64,000 nt of DNA, taken from a virus (taxonomy: Duplodnaviria > Caudoviricetes). Position 1 is the first letter of the stretch; every line of letters starts with the position of its first letter. The notes under the pieces are model-generated. The model did no database searches, had not been told where the DNA came from, and saw nothing but the letters and a program-made list of their open reading frames with translations. The stretch lies in the IMG/VR virus record IMGVR_UViG_3300044719_000253, positions 1 through 64,000 of that record. One strand, written 5' to 3'. The position numbers and the translations under genes are program-made. Shown piece after piece: positions 15,573-42,610 of the stretch.

Positions 15573-15941
15573 ACGGCATAACAAAAGGGTCAAGGGGTGA
15601 GACGCGGGGATGAGCATCGCGGTTACGCGCCACACCCACCCCCGTTCTCGATGACTCCAACAGCATCTGCCCGTCGTGGCCACAACGAACAAACCCATCA
15701 AAGGCTGCGCTCCCATGAAAGGGCCAACATCTTCCAAGCTCCGCTTTCGGTTACAAGGTCGAATCAGACAAAGCACAACTTGCCAACCGTCCGCCACGGT
15801 CCCTTGACAGGGGAACGCGCCAACGCACTGGCCGTACAGTTTCAGCACTCGTGTCAGGAATGCCACTAGACTCCCATCCAATCCCCTACCCTGTGGTCTG
15901 GGGGACGAGAGCAACGGCTACCACTGTTAAGTCCGTTGGTA
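15573..15941 (-). ncRNA. candidate ~370-nt structured ncRNA between hammerhead cleavage site and terminator
   Basis: Many short stems (15786-15800, 15800-15814, 15741-15750, 15594-15643); ends in hairpin plus TTATGCCGT; no SD-linked ORF. Confidence 0.5.
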
Positions 15942-16034
15942 TACATCCCACGCTGGAAATGTCGTGAGATGTTTCGAAGGGTTTGCAACCTTGCCTGTTA
16001 TCCAGGGGCCGACTTCCACGGCTCGTCAGTACCA
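15937..16034 (-). ncRNA. type I hammerhead ribozyme, variant with expanded stem II region
   Basis: Minus strand: TGGTA-CTGACGA-G...C-GAAAC-ATCTCACG-loop-CGTGGGAT-GT-A-TACCA; 5-bp stem I, 10-bp stem III, complete core, GUA cleavage site at 15942. Confidence 0.75.
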
Positions 16035-16262
16035 TTATTTAAAAGGGTGGGTTTACTAAGGTGACCTTAAAGTCTAAACAAGAGCTTTCTTGATACGATG
16101 ATCACTGAATGGACAATGCGACCCGCGGTCGATCCAGAGCAAACCCATTGGACGGATAAACGCAACAGGAGGAACCCAAATCTTAGTTGTAGAGTGTCAA
16201 CAACACAACCCCAGTAAAGTTAAGATAACTCTACTAGACTTAGATTCCTTCTGTCGTATTCA

Positions 16263-16337
16263 TGGTGCCGATAGAGTGAATCAAACACTCGACCTTACGC
16301 TTACAAGGCGTCTGCTCTGTCACTGAGCTATATCGGC
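16263..16337 (-). tRNA. trnT: tRNA-Thr(UGU)
   Basis: 7-bp acceptor GCCGATA/TATCGGC, anticodon loop CT-TGT-AA, encoded CCA; T loop reads TTTGATT. Confidence 0.9.
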
Positions 16338-16351
16338 ATGTTGTTTGCAAA

Positions 16352-16468
16352 ACGCGTACTGTTACGTCAAAGGAGATTCGAACTGCCATCTACTATTTCC
16401 CCGCGGACCAACACGGTCAACGCTTCGCTCCACTCATTAAGGATGGCTGCTTCTAAGCCAACCACATA
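16352..16468 (-). ncRNA. 23S rRNA H43-H44 (L11/GTPase-associated centre) mimic with internal insertion
   Basis: GGTTGGCTTAGAAGCAGCCATCCTTAATGAGT, then a ~60-nt insert, then GACGTAACAGTAC; matches recalled 23S GTTGGCTTAGAAGCAGCCATC..TTAAAGAGTGCGTAATAGC. Confidence 0.7.
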
Positions 16469-16485
16469 ATGCAAACAAAAAGTTG

Positions 16486-16794
16486 TTACAGCCAATAGTC
16501 CCGAGGGGCTTTGGCTTCGAGCATGACTTCGAATTCTTCACCACGCACATAACGATACAGTTGTGCTTTCGCTTTGCGGCGTTGTGGACGTTCGGTGGTG
16601 AGGTTACGGAACCAAGCCGGGCCGGGTTCTTTCCAAGTCATGGTCTTATCAGCGCGTTGTTTGGCTAAACGTTTTCGTCCTTCCTTGGATTTCGGATCGA
16701 TGCGGATACGGTCGCCATTGGCGTTGTAATCGTGCAAGACCCAGTCCCGGGTGTAGAAAAAGTTATGGCCTTTATCGCGGTAGGTACGAGACAT
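16486..16794 (-). CDS. basic Arg/Lys/Trp-rich small protein (MSRTYR-type) of phage tRNA regions
   Basis: GGAG SD; highly basic, suggests RNA or ribosome binding. Confidence 0.7.
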   Translation of the reverse strand: MSRTYRDKGHNFFYTRDWVLHDYNANGDRIRIDPKSKEGRKRLAKQRADKTMTWKEPGPAWFRNLTTERPQRRKAKAQLYRYVRGEEFEVMLEAKAPRDYWL

Positions 16795-16818
16795 CTCAGC
16801 TCCATGTGGTAGTTAAAC

Positions 16819-16827
16819 CTATTTCAT
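16819..16827 (-). other. minigene ATG-AAA-TAG with strong SD
   Basis: AGGAGG (16833-16838) 5 nt upstream of ATGAAATAG. Confidence 0.55.
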
Positions 16828-16892
16828 GGTAGCCTCCTATCAATAAAGGGCCCTAATCCCATCGGGGGTTAGGGAGGATGTATGCTGCTTAC

Positions 16893-16968
16893 AAAAAAAG
16901 AAGGCTTCATTGGCTGACTCGGGTTTGCAACCGTGTCGCCATGACGTTTTTTGTCAACCAATGAAGCC
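16893..16968 (-). terminator. intrinsic terminator with large loop
   Basis: GGCTTCATTGG/CCAATGAAGCC 11-bp stem followed by TTCTTTTTTT. Confidence 0.7.
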
Positions 16969-17062
16969 AGAGGGGTGCGCTAGAACCTCGGCACTAACTG
17001 AGGAGGAAGTACGTTGAAAGGTCCAGCTTTCTTAAGGTCCTAGCGCGAACGGGCGCCCGTGT
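16969..17062 (-). ncRNA. structured RNA with preQ1-I-like hairpin and competing 12-bp stem
   Basis: GAGG-TTCTAGCGCACC-CCTC at 16969-16990; alternative GCGCTAGGACCT/AGGTTCTAGCGC stem (17035-17046 with 16977-16988). Confidence 0.4.
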
Positions 17063-17165
17063 CAGCTTCTTGGAATTCACTTTTTAGCCTGATAGCGCCA
17101 TCTTTCATAATGACGACATCGGGTTAATCGGGAATAACTGACGTGGGCATTGATCGGGAGAAGAC

Positions 17166-17630
17166 TTACGCCTTCAAAAATTCTGATGCATACTGAACTG
17201 CCTTGATGGCGTCAGCGTTACCGCCTTTCAACATATTAGCCAAGAATTCGCCGCTGGCTTGAACAACCAAAGGGTTCTTTTGGCTGGCCCGGGTGAGCGC
17301 ATCGACAACGTTATCGAAACCCAGCGCGGTCAGAGCGGCTGTAGCGACATCTTCATCGTTAAGTTCTTGGCTGGGTTCCAGCGAGCACGGAACGTTGGTG
17401 GCACGCGAAGCGATGGTTTTACCTGCATCGCTCAGCACATACACGTTACCGTGCATGAGATATTCTTCTGGATCGTGTTCCGGACTGTGAATGATGCAGG
17501 TATCCAGACCCTGCTCATTGCGTTTGAACTCGACCTTCCCGCCATCTGGCAAACTGATCAGCTGGAAAGCTTTGAATGGGCTCGAATCCGGCATGTCTTC
17601 ATTCGACATGAGTTTGACAAAACCTGCCAT
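17166..17630 (-). CDS. hypothetical protein
   Basis: AAGGAG SD. Confidence 0.7.
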   Translation of the reverse strand: MAGFVKLMSNEDMPDSSPFKAFQLISLPDGGKVEFKRNEQGLDTCIIHSPEHDPEEYLMHGNVYVLSDAGKTIASRATNVPCSLEPSQELNDEDVATAALTALGFDNVVDALTRASQKNPLVVQASGEFLANMLKGGNADAIKAVQYASEFLKA

Positions 17631-17712
17631 GGTACATTCTCCTTGTAGCTAGTAAGTGGTATCTCTACCGTGATGATTTTACTCTGTTCATCAAACAGTC
17701 CTACGAAAAACT

Positions 17713-17831
17713 TGATGGAAAATGGAGAGATTCGAACTCTCGGTAGGTAGCTAGGATCACCCTTTGCCACTAGCCCCCACATCTATCATCCCACGATGAT
17801 CGATCGCCTTCAGCCACTCAGCCACACTTCC
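17713..17831 (-). ncRNA. tRNA-Ser-like RNA with aberrant anticodon arm and very long variable arm
   Basis: D arm GCTGAGTGGCTGAAGGC, T arm GAGAG-TTCGAAT-CTCTC, anticodon arm replaced by a 9-bp stem with 4-nt loop; no CCA. Confidence 0.65.
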
Positions 17832-17834
17832 GAC

Positions 17835-17975
17835 TCCCCGAATAGGAGTTCCGTTAATCCGAACGCATCGGATCACCTCATATCCCATCGACCTCGAAAG
17901 TCGACACGGCACGAGAGGATGCCATGAAGATCCACTAACGTGGTGAAGTCATGGAACGGGTTTGTGCTCTTTACT
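17835..17975 (-). ncRNA. unclassified multi-hairpin RNA between tRNA-like genes
   Basis: Stems CATGGCA/TGCCGTG, TCGAC/GTCGA, ATCCGA/TCGGAT, CCAC/GTGG, ACTCC/GGAGT. Confidence 0.4.
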
Positions 17976-17988
17976 ACAACAATGCGGT

Positions 17989-18145
17989 AGGTCGAGAGAG
18001 GGAATCGAACCCCCGTTCTACTACAACAGTTTATCTGGATACCCGCCCCGACCATTGGCCCGGTAGATACCCTACTGTTGGTTCAAATACTGATCACTTA
18101 ACCCAGGGAGCAATCAGCTGCGTCTTCCACTTCGCCATCTCGACC
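17989..18145 (-). ncRNA. expanded tRNA-like RNA (8-bp acceptor, 18-nt anticodon loop, ~75-nt variable region)
   Basis: GGTCGAGA/TCTCGACC acceptor, GCG-AAGTGGAAGA-CGC D arm, GGGGG-TTCGATT-CCCTC T arm. Confidence 0.7.
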
Positions 18146-18154
18146 ATTGAAACT

Positions 18155-18229
18155 TGGGCTTGGAGGGGAGATTCGAACTCCCGACCTCTGTCTTGGTTAT
18201 ATGCGCTCTAACCGACTGAGCTACCAGCG
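18155..18229 (-). pseudogene. degenerate tRNA-like element (D and T arms intact)
   Basis: TAGCTCAGTCGGTTAGAGC and GGGAG-TTCGAAT-CTCCC; anticodon and acceptor stems do not pair. Confidence 0.6.
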
Positions 18230-18240
18230 AGTATCTTCAT

Positions 18241-18307
18241 ACTCCCCAGGCTGGACTCGAACCAGGGACCTCAAACGACAGTGCTCTACCGCTGAGCTAC
18301 TCCGCGC
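18241..18307 (-). pseudogene. degenerate tRNA-like element (D and T arms intact, anticodon arm truncated)
   Basis: TAGCTCAGCGGTAGAGC and CTGG-TTCGAGT-CCAG; only about 10 nt where the anticodon arm should be. Confidence 0.6.
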
Positions 18308-18314
18308 ATTGACC

Positions 18315-18605
18315 CTATTCACACTGGTAGAACAAGTCTTCTTTCTGCAAGCTGAGTCGCTTCAGCGTGTCGACTTCTTCGTTCCATTGCTGGATGTTCA
18401 GATACACCAGGCTGAGGTACGGGGGCAGTTCAGCCGGGATGGTGGCACGCTCGACCGAGATGAAACGCCAGAGATTGAGGATCGTCTCGGGTACAGCGCG
18501 TTGGTATTCGATCCCCAGTTCGGCCATCTGTACTTGGGGATTCACGTCTTTCGGGGCGTTGAGAAGATCGTAAATGATGTTAACGCCAGTCGGAGTAGCT
18601 GCCAT
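18315..18605 (-). CDS. hypothetical protein
   Basis: ORF directly upstream of tRNA-like array. Confidence 0.65.
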   Translation of the reverse strand: MAATPTGVNIIYDLLNAPKDVNPQVQMAELGIEYQRAVPETILNLWRFISVERATIPAELPPYLSLVYLNIQQWNEEVDTLKRLSLQKEDLFYQCE

Positions 18606-23019: not shown

Positions 23020-24684
23020 TTAGCCCATCAGAGCATCGTTGATGAGGTCATGCGTGATGGTGGGACGAGTTTGTTTCACCCCCATCATTTCGAACCGCAC
23101 CGGACCATGGTCCATCAACCCTTGCAACACTTGCATGAACCCGGCGGACAGGGTCAGGCGTGCAGCAGCATTGTGGTAGGTGATGGTGGTCTGGGCCAAC
23201 TGCTCTTGCGTTTTGGCACGGAACGAATCGTGTTCGGCGCGCTGCATTGGCGACGTGGCATAACCACGACTTTTCATCTGCGGAGCGAACTGACTGTCTT
23301 GATAACGGTTGGCATCGTCCACCGTTAAGTGACTGTGATTCAGCGCTGCGAGGAAATCAATCTCGCGGGTATCATGCTTGACGGCCTTGTCATCCTCGGT
23401 TTCCTGGAACGTGCCGATTTGGACGAGGGTGTTCGACAATGAGCCAATGCGCCATGGTTTCTGCATGAACGAAGCCCGGGTGAATTCCGCACCCATGTTG
23501 CCGTTCAACATCAACGATGCGCAATCCACGATCAGCGTAGTCACTTCGTGTTTTCCTTTCGCCGCTTCTGCCCACATCGAAAGCGTGTCATTGACGGTCG
23601 GGTTCATCAACATATCGAACGAGATCAAATGGCCACGGCCGATCATTTCGTTCAGCGTCTGAGCAAACCCCGGGGCACTAGGGTAGTCACCTTTAATGCG
23701 CTGCAATGCCGCAAAATCACTCCAAGTCTGCGTGCCATACATCGACTCGAACTTCTTACTCCAGAGCCCAGCCCGCATGAATGACGACACCATCAGTGCC
23801 GCTAGAGTCGGTGGCACCAATACCGTCCCGCACTGAATGACGTAGCGGATATCTGTCACCACGAATTCAGGGATGTAGTACGGCGTATCAGGCACCCACG
23901 GACGATCCGGCGCGGATTGTTCCGGCATATAGCGAAAATCGATATAACCGGAAACCGTGATGAGTTCGACCGGATCGAGCATCATGCTCAATGTGGATTG
24001 CCGACTACTGTGCGGGATCGATGACAACGTCAGCGTGATGTCGTTGCGCACCGGTTGACCAAAAACATCCGCGATGGGTGCCGCATCAAACGTATAATCG
24101 ACTTTGAACTCATTCCCAACACGTTCCGCTTCGACGAAATCGGGCAACATCTTCTTCACATCGGCGGCCTCTTTCGCGCTATGAATCCGCTCGAATTCCG
24201 CCCGGTTGTCTGCCGCATTCAACAGATGGTTGATGATCTCGCGGCACCTGGACAGATCGTTGTAATCGATCGGAAAAGGCTCGACTAACCCCAACGCGAT
24301 CGTCGATTTGGTATCCGACGCTTCCCCGAAGGCTTGGGCGATAATCGGCTGATTGTTGGGATGGTTCAGGTACTGGTAAATCGAATTGCCGAGGTTGACG
24401 TGTTTGATGATGACTTCGCTCTTATACGGCAGATACACCGACACGTACACCTTGCCAGTTTCCGGATCTGGGTAGCGCAGCAACAGCACCTTTTTCGGCG
24501 AGGGGACGTTGTGGTGGAAATCCAGTTCCAAGGTGGCGATCGCTACCTGGAAAGCGTTCTGGTATTCAGCGGCGAACCGTTGCGCCACCTCGAACAACAC
24601 GTTCAGGTCAGACGAGGCTTCATTGGATGACGTCGAGCCATAACGACGGAAATTGCGGTCAGCGCCAAAGAAATTGTTTTGCAT
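23020..24684 (-). CDS. phiKZ major capsid protein (gp120)-like divergent paralog
   Basis: DVFGQPVRNDI, VSGYIDF, YIPEFVVTDI, IVD.A..M.NG, DTREIDFLAALN match my recollection of phiKZ-like MCP motifs; shorter than the ~750-aa MCP. Confidence 0.5.
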   Translation of the reverse strand: MQNNFFGADRNFRRYGSTSSNEASSDLNVLFEVAQRFAAEYQNAFQVAIATLELDFHHNVPSPKKVLLLRYPDPETGKVYVSVYLPYKSEVIIKHVNLGNSIYQYLNHPNNQPIIAQAFGEASDTKSTIALGLVEPFPIDYNDLSRCREIINHLLNAADNRAEFERIHSAKEAADVKKMLPDFVEAERVGNEFKVDYTFDAAPIADVFGQPVRNDITLTLSSIPHSSRQSTLSMMLDPVELITVSGYIDFRYMPEQSAPDRPWVPDTPYYIPEFVVTDIRYVIQCGTVLVPPTLAALMVSSFMRAGLWSKKFESMYGTQTWSDFAALQRIKGDYPSAPGFAQTLNEMIGRGHLISFDMLMNPTVNDTLSMWAEAAKGKHEVTTLIVDCASLMLNGNMGAEFTRASFMQKPWRIGSLSNTLVQIGTFQETEDDKAVKHDTREIDFLAALNHSHLTVDDANRYQDSQFAPQMKSRGYATSPMQRAEHDSFRAKTQEQLAQTTITYHNAAARLTLSAGFMQVLQGLMDHGPVRFEMMGVKQTRPTITHDLINDALMG

Positions 24685-41062: not shown

Positions 41063-42610
41063 TTACGCTACTGCGGCGACAGCATCGACCGATTGCGCGA
41101 ACGCCAAACGATTCGCCGCTTTGTCGATAGCACCTTTCTGCGCATTGGCGCGGGTGTCATCGAACGATTGACGCCAGTCACGATAGCCCTTGTCGAGCCA
41201 GCGACGGTGTCCAGGACCCGGCACGAACATCTCGTAGAGACTGTTCGATACCAGGGCGTCGAAGGTTTCGAGTTCACCGTTGTCGTTTTCACGATTACGG
41301 ATCAACCCCGACAGCGACTTCTTACCCAGGTCCGACTTCGGTTCCTTGAGCACGCGTTCCCACGATTCGCAGCGTTTCGCGATCGTCTTCATGCTGAAGC
41401 TCAGTTTGTCACGGGAACCTTCGTTGGTGATGCCGGCACCCATGCCGAGCAGGAAGTTATTGGTGGAGAACTTGTGGTCCACCACCGCTGCCCGCACGAC
41501 GGGTTCGAAAGTGCTGACGTTCATGCCGTCACCATACAGTGCCCCGATGCATGGGGGCAGGTCTTGGTAACCAGCCGCGTTCACGGTTGTGCCGAAGATG
41601 TCCTTCAGCCAGCCGAGCACTTGTGGCAACTTCTTCTTGGGGATGCCCGAATCCGGACGGATGACCAAACGGCCACCCGAGTTTTCGATTTCCACCTTGA
41701 AGCCAGCGACGTACACCGTGACGAAACGTTCATCGTCGTAGGTATCAGGCACCGTCGAGATCACCGGGATACCGATGCCGCGTTTGCTACGCTCGACCAC
41801 CGCGTTCAAGCGCCGCATCACCATCTGCATGCCGCCGAAATCGTCACGCGTTGCCGCGTCCGAGTTCAGGCAGACCGTCGTGTGTTCCGTGGCTTCCACC
41901 GAGCTGGTGTAGGCCTTGGGCGTGTTGTAGAGCGTCTTGATGTAACGATTGGCGCGACCACAATCACTGCCCAGGAACAGCATCGCGTGTGCAATGCCTT
42001 TCAGGACGGGGGTTTCATCTGGACCATCTGCACCACGATCACCGAAGTTGTGGATCAGATATTCCAGCATGTTGATGTTACCACCGGACAGGAGTACGTA
42101 GTACGCCATAGTGGTGAACATGTAGCGGCAGATGGTGGCCGTATAGGTCATCGACCACGACACCGACTGGATCACTGGCTCGAAGTACGGGACCAACCAC
42201 GCAGTGTGGTCATCGTCTTCGTTGGTCACCAGCAGAATCGGCGTCTGGGGCTTAACCACACGACCTTCTTCAACCCCGAACATGGTCAGAGGAATCCGAC
42301 CGCCGTAGGTGCGAAGGATGTACTCCCAGCCTTCGCGGTTGAAGTGATAGCCCTGCTCGGTAATTTCGACTTCTGCTTCGTCGATCATCCATTGTTCGAG
42401 ACGCGCCGTGGCGAACACGTGAGCGATGAACGTTTGTCCGGCGGCCACGATGTCGTCCGTGATCAGCGCGCCGTTGTCGTCGAACAGCGGTTTACGCGGC
42501 ACCACAGCTGAAACCAGCTGCTTCACACCAAAGGGAATTTCTTCCCAGTGGGCAAATTTGTAGGTGTCGCACCAGAGGATGATGTTGAAGGGTTTTACGA
42601 GTTCCAGCAT
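41063..42610 (-). CDS. nadV: nicotinamide phosphoribosyltransferase (Nampt)
   Basis: DTYKFAH, HNFGDRG, SVEATEH, VPDTYD, RPDSG, YGDG, GMGAG, FSMK, KKSLSG. Confidence 0.92.
   Translation of the reverse strand: MLELVKPFNIILWCDTYKFAHWEEIPFGVKQLVSAVVPRKPLFDDNGALITDDIVAAGQTFIAHVFATARLEQWMIDEAEVEITEQGYHFNREGWEYILRTYGGRIPLTMFGVEEGRVVKPQTPILLVTNEDDDHTAWLVPYFEPVIQSVSWSMTYTATICRYMFTTMAYYVLLSGGNINMLEYLIHNFGDRGADGPDETPVLKGIAHAMLFLGSDCGRANRYIKTLYNTPKAYTSSVEATEHTTVCLNSDAATRDDFGGMQMVMRRLNAVVERSKRGIGIPVISTVPDTYDDERFVTVYVAGFKVEIENSGGRLVIRPDSGIPKKKLPQVLGWLKDIFGTTVNAAGYQDLPPCIGALYGDGMNVSTFEPVVRAAVVDHKFSTNNFLLGMGAGITNEGSRDKLSFSMKTIAKRCESWERVLKEPKSDLGKKSLSGLIRNRENDNGELETFDALVSNSLYEMFVPGPGHRRWLDKGYRDWRQSFDDTRANAQKGAIDKAANRLAFAQSVDAVAAVA

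Follow-up and report, generated by a model that had tools for sequence, protein, structure and literature searches.

The window analysed here, the first 64,000 nucleotides (nt) of the 226-kilobase (kb) Caudoviricetes phage record IMGVR_UViG_3300044719_000253 from IMG/VR, carries a non-coding RNA element of about 135 nt (16341-16476, minus strand) that imitates the GTPase-associated centre (GAC) of 23S ribosomal RNA (rRNA), that is, helices 42 to 44 (H42-H44) with their factor-contacting loops. The element belongs to a very large RNA family found in large phages, and comparison of its members supports the view that it is a stand-alone non-coding RNA gene and a selected mimic of the GAC, not rRNA debris. 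As for its role, we lean towards a trans-acting RNA that would fold like the 58-nt GAC domain and bind the ribosomal protein uL11 of the host, and we hold this reading with moderate confidence.

Sequence match and architecture of the element

The initial annotation of this region had recognised an exact match of 21-25 nt to H43 of 23S rRNA with the A1067 loop inside it, and comparison with a genuine bacterial 23S sequence bears this out. The longest shared exact run is 21 nt (GTTGGCTTAGAAGCAGCCATC, 16462-16442, minus strand); the 1067 loop UUAGAAGC lies inside this run, TTAATGAGT comes after it, and in the alignment to 23S rRNA both functional loops of the domain are retained. By our own arithmetic, the chance expectation for such a 21-mer in the 64-kb window is about 3e-8. 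The 23S reference was a locus (L007) identified with the Rfam model LSU_rRNA_bacteria (RF02541, 2619 bits). This reference itself comes from a phage record, that of Paenibacillus phage Pd_22F (MZ092003.1, 82476-85508), where at least 2.6 kb of genuine bacterial 23S sequence lie in an unannotated stretch, which might stem from the host or from contamination of the assembly.

The limits of the element (16341..16476) follow from the matches of two covariance models described below. Read along the minus strand, to which all positions of its parts refer, it opens with the 5' strand of a closing helix (GUUUGCA, 16470..16476), which pairs with UGCAAAC at 16343..16349; RNAfold adds two pairs, to 16478, and the resulting helix of 7-9 base pairs seals the element 3 nt ahead of a transfer RNA (tRNA) gene for threonine. 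A 2x2 U/U internal loop separates this helix from the H42-like inner pairs, in which AUG (16465..16467) faces CGU (16352-16354) with canonical pairs only; one of them, A:U in the window, is U:A in the nearest relative (L341), as read from the sequences. The H43-like hairpin follows (16441..16463), with two lower G:C pairs, an internal loop UU/AU, an upper stem GGCU/AGCC and the loop UAGAAGC (16455-16449), in which the equivalent of A1067 is at 16454; the 21-nt run identical to L007 (16442..16462) covers most of it. Next come UUAAU, the 1082-1086 region of the UAA triloop, and GAGU, which represents G1087-A1088-G1089-U1090 (together 16432..16440).

At this point the 5' strand of H44 is opened, between 1090 and 1091, by an insert of 60 nt (16372..16431) with a basal helix of GGAG (16431-16428) and CUCC (16375-16372), as had been described for the region at first sight together with the H44-like loop behind it. 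The linker UUUG (16368..16371) joins the insert to the top of H44, an H44-like hairpin ACGUAACAGU (16358..16367) with the loop GUAACA and the equivalent of A1095 at 16363. This hairpin is closed by A1091:U1100, which is compensatory for the usual G:C, and by C1092:G1099. The segment A1101-C1102-G1103 (16355..16357) completes the domain; the base of H44 can form through pairing of A1101 with U1090 and of C1102 with G1087. In the window, every one of the 24 pairs of this GAC-like scheme is canonical. The initial annotation had placed the element at 16352-16468, which is the right location and slightly too narrow, as the closing helix extends to 16476 and 16343.

A large family in phages

Two covariance models were used to define the family, a first one (R1) and a second one (R2) built from 43 relatives with the window sequence left out. 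R2 nevertheless finds the element as its sole match in the window (16342-16474, minus strand; 69.7 bits, E 3.6e-20), and R1 finds a single copy in the whole 226-kb record (16341-16475, minus strand; 75.7 bits). In a blastn search of phage records, the H43 part matched unannotated gaps in unrelated cultured phages, namely Pseudomonas phages UNO-G1W1, pf16 and Milchi, Xanthomonas phages XbC2 and XacN1, Cronobacter phage GAP32, Erwinia phage Kaldavass and Aeromonas phage 4_4572; the cultured carriers span the hosts Pseudomonas, Xanthomonas, Cronobacter, Erwinia, Serratia, Pectobacterium and Aeromonas. The architecture in these gaps is constant, consisting of the closing helix, H43, the UAA loop, GAGU and an insert of very variable length, after which UUUGG-CGUARNAGC-RCAC leads into the return strand. 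Short records among the blastn matches hold real rRNA contamination, as does L007.

Pattern scans of IMG/VR extended the family much further. A pattern for the 3' half, which is absent from true 23S rRNA, was present in at least 120 contigs; an H43-like 15-mer lay upstream in 96 of the 120 listed matches, and R1 confirmed most of the others too. A pattern confined to the 5' half, with no constraint on the loops or the 3' half, returned at least 54 new loci, 47 of these 54 being confirmed as full members with variant 3' halves; in this unbiased sample, UUUG and UUUA are the predominant linkers. Overall, the same architecture is found in at least well over 150 IMG/VR contigs. When bacterial and archaeal assemblies were scanned, about 19 of 100 short-pattern matches were true members, from both metagenome-assembled genomes and isolates of many phyla, and most others were chance matches; these members are probably prophages or mis-binned phage contigs. 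The structure-preserving homologues that the initial annotation called for thus exist, they covary, and they often adjoin phage tRNAs.

The window has all parts of the family architecture in order, from the closing helix to the H44 hairpin and the return strand, and it departs from the family in three details, a segment 1081-1086 that is one nucleotide shorter, the exchange of G1091:C1100 for A:U, and the U/U internal loop in the closing helix. It also shares the traits of the carriers, as it comes from a 226-kb virus record with tail-protein and chimallin-like genes and the element adjoins a tRNA.

Covariation and conservation

From a MAFFT alignment of 44 sequences, RNAalifold predicted the closing (H42-like) helix, the lower and upper parts of H43, the four-pair basal helix of the insert and the H44 hairpin, with compensatory changes at 16 of the 24 predicted pairs. 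When 100 sequences were aligned to the model, standard pairs occupied 92.6% of the cells against 69.3% in shuffles, and changes on both sides of a pair were seen in 594 cells against 187 +/- 12, these values being reached by none of 500 shuffles; this alignment is fitted to the model and therefore biased towards the structure, and the pair counts use the structure stored with it. If the partners were slid by 1-3 columns, pairing fell to only 25-59%. The unfitted alignment of 44 sequences shows the same covariation as the fitted one. The equivalent of the window's closing helix covaries strongly across the family, the lower part of H43 is likewise supported by covariation, GC, AU, UA and CG are all seen at each of the four pairs of the insert basal helix, and the top H44 pairs are compensatory, with A:U in the window and U:A in two relatives (L264 and L303). 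The pair 1082:1086, which closes the UAA triloop and is a hallmark of the GAC fold, was not predicted by RNAalifold, and among 74 sequences it is U:A in 40, C:G in 22, A:U in 10 and a non-pair in 2.

Conservation of single residues follows the tertiary fold. In the 44-sequence alignment, G1059, U1060, A1077, C1079, A1084, A1085, G1087, A1088, G1089 and U1090 are invariant, and the invariant residues of the GAC fold are not demanded by any of the search patterns; U1060 and A1088 are tertiary-fold partners in the GAC. The family shows no variation at the structural positions U1066, C1072, G1093 and A1098, whereas 82% of members have A and 15% have G at 1067, and about 8% have something other than A at 1095; both adenines are presumably less conserved here than in rRNA. 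Because the adenines used by factors and thiopeptides vary and the structural positions are fixed, the pattern fits selection for the fold and for uL11 binding.

These data bear directly on the possibility of neutral debris, in which a fragment of host 23S rRNA would have been gained by recombination and then broken by a chance insertion. The 21-nt identity and the real rRNA contamination in some phage records (L007 and the short records) are what such an origin would leave. However, no large-subunit rRNA match was found in the window, nor across the whole 226-kb record at E <= 10, so the element stands there without other rRNA sequence, and the same insertion site, linker, closing helix and compensatory changes are common to well over 150 phage contigs. 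In addition, the family core reads GAGU even in gammaproteobacterial phages, as opposed to the GAAA of the hosts' own 23S rRNA at those positions. Because insertion site, linker, closing helix and compensatory changes recur across the family, we consider debris hardly credible; the claim of a selected mimic made in the initial annotation stands, with compensatory changes in every helix and invariant tertiary-fold residues behind it.

Variation in the subgroup of the window and in the insert

Twenty IMG/VR members, the window among them, form a subgroup with one nucleotide less in the segment 1081-1086 (..CYUUAAUGAGU); many of them have G instead of A at 1103, and so does the window. The nearest relative, L341, lies on a 113-kb IMG/VR contig between tRNA-Val and tRNA-Leu and shares 45 identical nt with the window (L341:2616-2660, window 16422-16466), from H43 to the start of the insert. 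The fetched L341 locus has no other DNA or protein similarity to the window, and the 45-nt identity reflects either a very strong constraint or a recent transfer of the element.

Insert length ranges from 40 to 330 nt in the relatives. The commonest recognisable insert, which we call type I and which occurs in 22 of 100 members, has the order GGGACGAAG ... AGUA ... CACCCC-hairpin-GGUAAGG ... GAAUCUCCC. The window's insert is a shortened type I that keeps GGAGCGAAGC, AUAGUAG and GAAUCUCC and is without the small hairpin. Within it, GTTCGAATC (16383-16375, minus strand) had at first been read as T-loop-like. We reject this reading: the flanking bases are not complementary, neither ARAGORN nor the Rfam tRNA model sees a tRNA or tRNA-like unit in 16341-16476, and in the comparison of inserts the motif falls on the 3' strand of type I, ..GAAUCUCC(C).

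Possible binding of uL11 and other proposed roles

Researchers have found that the isolated 58-nt rRNA domain folds alone and binds L11 (PMC2719339), and that the C-terminal domain of uL11 contacts nucleotides 1058-1060, 1062-1065, 1075-1083 and 1088 (PMC1802607). These contact nucleotides are present in the window element and conserved, and they all lie within its uninterrupted 5' half, with the exit of the insert at 1090/1091 outside the contact surface. No uL11 gene was found in the window's phage or in five cultured carrier phages, and an all-against-all blastp of open reading frames (ORFs) within 3 kb of 100 elements found no conserved neighbour protein, the largest cluster covering 5 of the 100 loci; thus, the protein partner would be the host's.

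The initial annotation had proposed that the RNA could titrate L11/L10, translational GTPases or RelA, or serve as a decoy for rRNA-targeting toxins. A plausible course of events is as follows. The RNA would be transcribed jointly with the upstream ORF and tRNA-Thr, and the RNase P cut at the 5' end of the tRNA would also create the 3' end of the element and release it. The ends of the RNA would then meet through the H42-like helix, and the compact tertiary fold of H43, UAA triloop and H44 would form, with the lineage-specific insert leaving H44 between 1090 and 1091, off the surface that touches uL11. Free RNA of this shape would imitate the ribosomal site in trans and capture ligands of the GAC, in the first place host uL11 through its C-terminal domain. 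The particle of RNA and protein formed in this way might draw uL11 off ribosomes or their assembly, or offer a factor-docking platform off the ribosome, and the consequences for the host could be a weakened RelA or stringent response, trapped translational GTPases, or the decoying of toxins.

Several points weigh against this scheme of a GAC-like fold and uL11 capture. The withdrawal of uL11 could slow the phage's own translation. The window and its 19 close relatives have UUAAU, which allows at best a U.U closing pair and not the Watson-Crick pair 1082:1086, and H44 is interrupted by the insert, which may affect the tertiary fold. Eight of 161 unique members (L016, L044, L081, L082, L085, L106, L112 and L114) have a second hairpin in the 3' strand of the H43 internal loop (around 1077/1078), inside the uL11 footprint. 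Three of the 161 carry a copy of the sarcin-ricin loop in the insert, as an AGUA-C-GAGA-G-GAA hairpin, where 0.25 would be expected by chance (L294:2313-2685, L051:7737-8120 and L070:3685-4068, about 257-283 nt into the element, with the variants AGUA/GGUA-C-GAGA/GGGA-G-GAA); their flanking stems differ in sequence yet remain complementary, that is, they covary. Such copies are needless for uL11 binding alone and point to GTPases or toxins as ligands. The window's genome has no sarcin-ricin-loop copy, only one near-match inside an ORF, which equals the control count.

Predicted folding energy is a further such point. The GAC-like fold of the window has -28.0 kcal/mol against -41.6 kcal/mol for the minimum free energy (MFE) fold, with a z-score of -0.95. 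However, this argument is weak because the native 58-mer rRNA domain also fails the energy test (GAC fold -4.8, MFE -17.0). The GAC fold depends on tertiary contacts, ions and uL11 (PMC1802607). The MFE fold of the element is driven by the pairing of GAUGGC in the insert (16385-16390) with GCCAUC in the 3' strand of H43 (16441-16446), both on the minus strand; this pairing is not kept in relatives such as L096 and is probably fortuitous, although it may give the RNA an alternative conformer.

The sarcin-ricin-loop copies lead to a wider reading, in which the RNA mimics the whole factor platform and, with or without uL11, binds EF-G, EF-Tu, IF2, RF3 or RelA off the ribosome and traps or modulates them, with a block of the stringent response as one possible outcome. 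The 1067 and 1095 loops, both of which contact factors, are kept in most members, and the sarcin-ricin loop is the other half of the GTPase site. EF-G is said to bind oligonucleotide mimics of both domains, the GAC and the sarcin-ricin loop, as reportedly seen by Munishkin and Wool in 1997. However, the affinity of factors for isolated rRNA domains is low, the factor-contacting bases A1067 and A1095 are the least conserved loop positions, neither the window nor its genome has a sarcin-ricin-loop copy, and trapped elongation factors would hurt phage translation too. We regard a platform mimic of this kind as unlikely.

The same copies imitate a classic target of toxins, and the RNA might instead be a decoy or pseudo-substrate for agents that attack the GAC, such as rRNA-targeting toxins (ADP-ribosyltransferases like Tre23, or nucleases) or thiopeptides, placed in a tRNA cluster next to tRNAs that act against defences aimed at tRNAs. 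There is a precise precedent in the toxin Tre23, which ADP-ribosylates exactly the H44 loop of the GAC at 1095-1098 (PMC8661411). The H44 loop and the overall shape of the domain are conserved in the family, and elements do occur in tRNA arrays. On the other hand, toxins are catalytic, so a limited decoy protects poorly unless it is bound as an inhibitor, and no toxin- or antitoxin-like gene is conserved nearby. We also know of no defence system that targets the GAC. On balance, we consider a decoy quite unlikely.

Between uL11 binding and these alternatives lies a broader claim that may apply to many large-phage lineages at once, namely that the RNA folds like H42-H44, in some lineages with a sarcin-ricin-loop copy added, and forms an off-ribosome GTPase-centre particle that recruits uL11 and competes for GTPases, RelA or GAC-directed toxins. 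We put this forward tentatively, as a possibility. For the window element, capture of host uL11 by a GAC-like RNA remains the reading we favour.

Genomic neighbourhood

The element lies between an ORF for a 102-amino-acid protein (16486..16794, minus strand), whose stop codon is about 10 nt before it, and tRNA-Thr(UGU) (16263..16337, minus strand; called by ARAGORN, 64.5 bits with the Rfam tRNA model), which begins 3 nt downstream. For the 102-amino-acid protein, no relatives were found in IMG/VR and no family in Pfam or PHROG. Beyond the tRNA lies a weak terminator-like hairpin (16210..16238, minus strand), and such sites are no commoner than in shuffles; likewise, a promoter and terminator scan of the region gave counts not above those of shuffles. 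Across the family, a tRNA lies within 2.5 kb of 54 of 94 unique elements, and 36 of the 94 have no tRNA in the fetched stretch. Of 140 elements examined, 23 are followed by a tRNA on the same strand that begins no more than about 10 nt further on, and 26 are preceded by one that ends no more than about 6 nt ahead of them; the neighbouring tRNAs show no preference for any identity. Because of this tight abutment, RNase P and 3'-processing enzymes would be expected to set the ends of the RNA.

Such an arrangement could also mean that the element acts only in cis, as a stability or processing module for the adjoining tRNA or for the 3' untranslated region of the upstream gene, without any trans role. 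Its position in the window, about 10 nt past a stop codon and 3 nt ahead of a tRNA, and the tight flanking by tRNAs in many relatives agree with this. However, a cis module has no reason to copy the GAC nucleotide by nucleotide, including the tertiary-fold residues, and it is difficult to reconcile with the loci that lack a tRNA, with the unbiased tRNA identity, or with Mimasvirus, where the copies lie between protein genes. A purely cis-acting module therefore seems to us very improbable.

Other features of the region and of related loci deserve mention. A 554-amino-acid protein encoded at 23020-24684 (minus strand) matches PHROG 4795 (phrog_4795), 'nuclear shell protein' (chimallin), with E 4e-22, and tail genes are also present, so far as annotation of the window's phage goes; judging by its genes, this phage may form a nucleus-like compartment. 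If a phage nucleus is formed, the element RNA and the tRNAs would need to exit the compartment to act. A gene for nicotinamide phosphoribosyltransferase (41063-42610, minus strand; phrog_448, E 6e-93) belongs to NAD salvage, a kind of function linked to countering NAD-depleting defences. When introns were allowed, ARAGORN called Leu-CAG (17717-17831), Asn-GUU (17989-18145) and Glu-UUC (18155-18306) on the minus strand, with intervening sequences of 34, 83 and 77 nt, and Rfam gave tRNA-like matches with large insertions at these sites, at or near the cut-off; these may be interrupted, degenerate or tandem partial tRNAs. A permuted transfer-messenger RNA (tmRNA; 73 bits, L029:6723-6932, minus strand) and a group I intron (70 bits, L117:2941-3164, plus strand) each lie no more than a few kb from a member of the family.

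Novelty and significance

At the gathering threshold, Rfam 15 reported only tRNA, tmRNA and a group I intron in the window and 18 related loci, and none of these matches was on the elements; around the window's element (15800-18500), a search at E <= 10 likewise gave no match on it. No description of a GAC-mimic family was found in the open literature or Rfam 15, the scope covered, and the family therefore appears to be undescribed. Phages are known to carry tRNAs, tmRNA, ribosomal proteins and translation factors, whereas a free-standing copy of a functional centre of rRNA is apparently undescribed in the open literature. The family is widely spread, and selection on it is clearly strong. If the RNA does bind uL11 or factors, it would be a new viral route to tune or protect host translation, and possibly a natural tool for probing the GAC, the stringent response and the action of thiopeptides. 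If it forms an off-ribosome particle, it would represent an unrecognised class of phage RNA, one that serves host takeover or counter-defence as a copy of a functional ribosomal centre. Several carriers are cultured phages, which makes the question directly testable.

Comparison with known systems

The closest counterpart of the element is the GAC of bacterial 23S rRNA itself (H42-H44, E. coli 1051-1108), the 58-nt domain to which uL11 and thiostrepton bind. The two share H43 with the 1067 loop, including the 21 identical nucleotides, the internal-loop residues U1060 and A1077, the UAA triloop and GAGU with A1088, and the family as a whole also shares the H44 loop GUAAYA, a helix that closes the domain and covariation at the same pairs as in rRNA. 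They differ in that the element lies outside any rRNA gene and is flanked by an ORF and a tRNA, and in that H44 (1087-1102) is continuous in rRNA, whereas in the element it is split at 1090/1091 by the 60-nt insert and the UUUG linker. The 1081-1086 segment of the window is one nucleotide shorter than in 23S rRNA, and all that is left of H42 is a short helix whose sequence varies freely. This makes L10 binding look unlikely, and the L10 site is probably absent.

Among phage RNAs, ROOL, GOLLD and the 'species 1 and 2' RNAs of the T4 tRNA cluster are similar in being structured, often located in tRNA arrays, of unknown function and probably matured by tRNA-processing enzymes. To our knowledge, none of them resembles rRNA. 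ROOL and GOLLD are in Rfam, yet neither matched in the 18 loci scanned, and no T4 record was among the 40 of 52 blastn matches listed. Decoy RNAs, such as 6S RNA, which imitates an open promoter, the ToxI-type RNA antitoxins and adenovirus VA RNA, share the proposed mode, in which an RNA occupies a protein by mimicking its target. They imitate other targets and have no sequence or structural kinship with the element, and the likeness is one of possible mode only.

The mRNA leaders of ribosomal protein genes (the L10 leader, RF00557, and those of L1, S8 and S15) offer another parallel, as there too an RNA off the ribosome imitates an rRNA site to bind a ribosomal protein. The element has no regulated ribosomal-protein gene, its downstream gene being a tRNA, and whereas the leaders are cellular cis-regulators that are only loosely rRNA-like, the element is a near-exact copy of the rRNA site that is carried in phage tRNA arrays.

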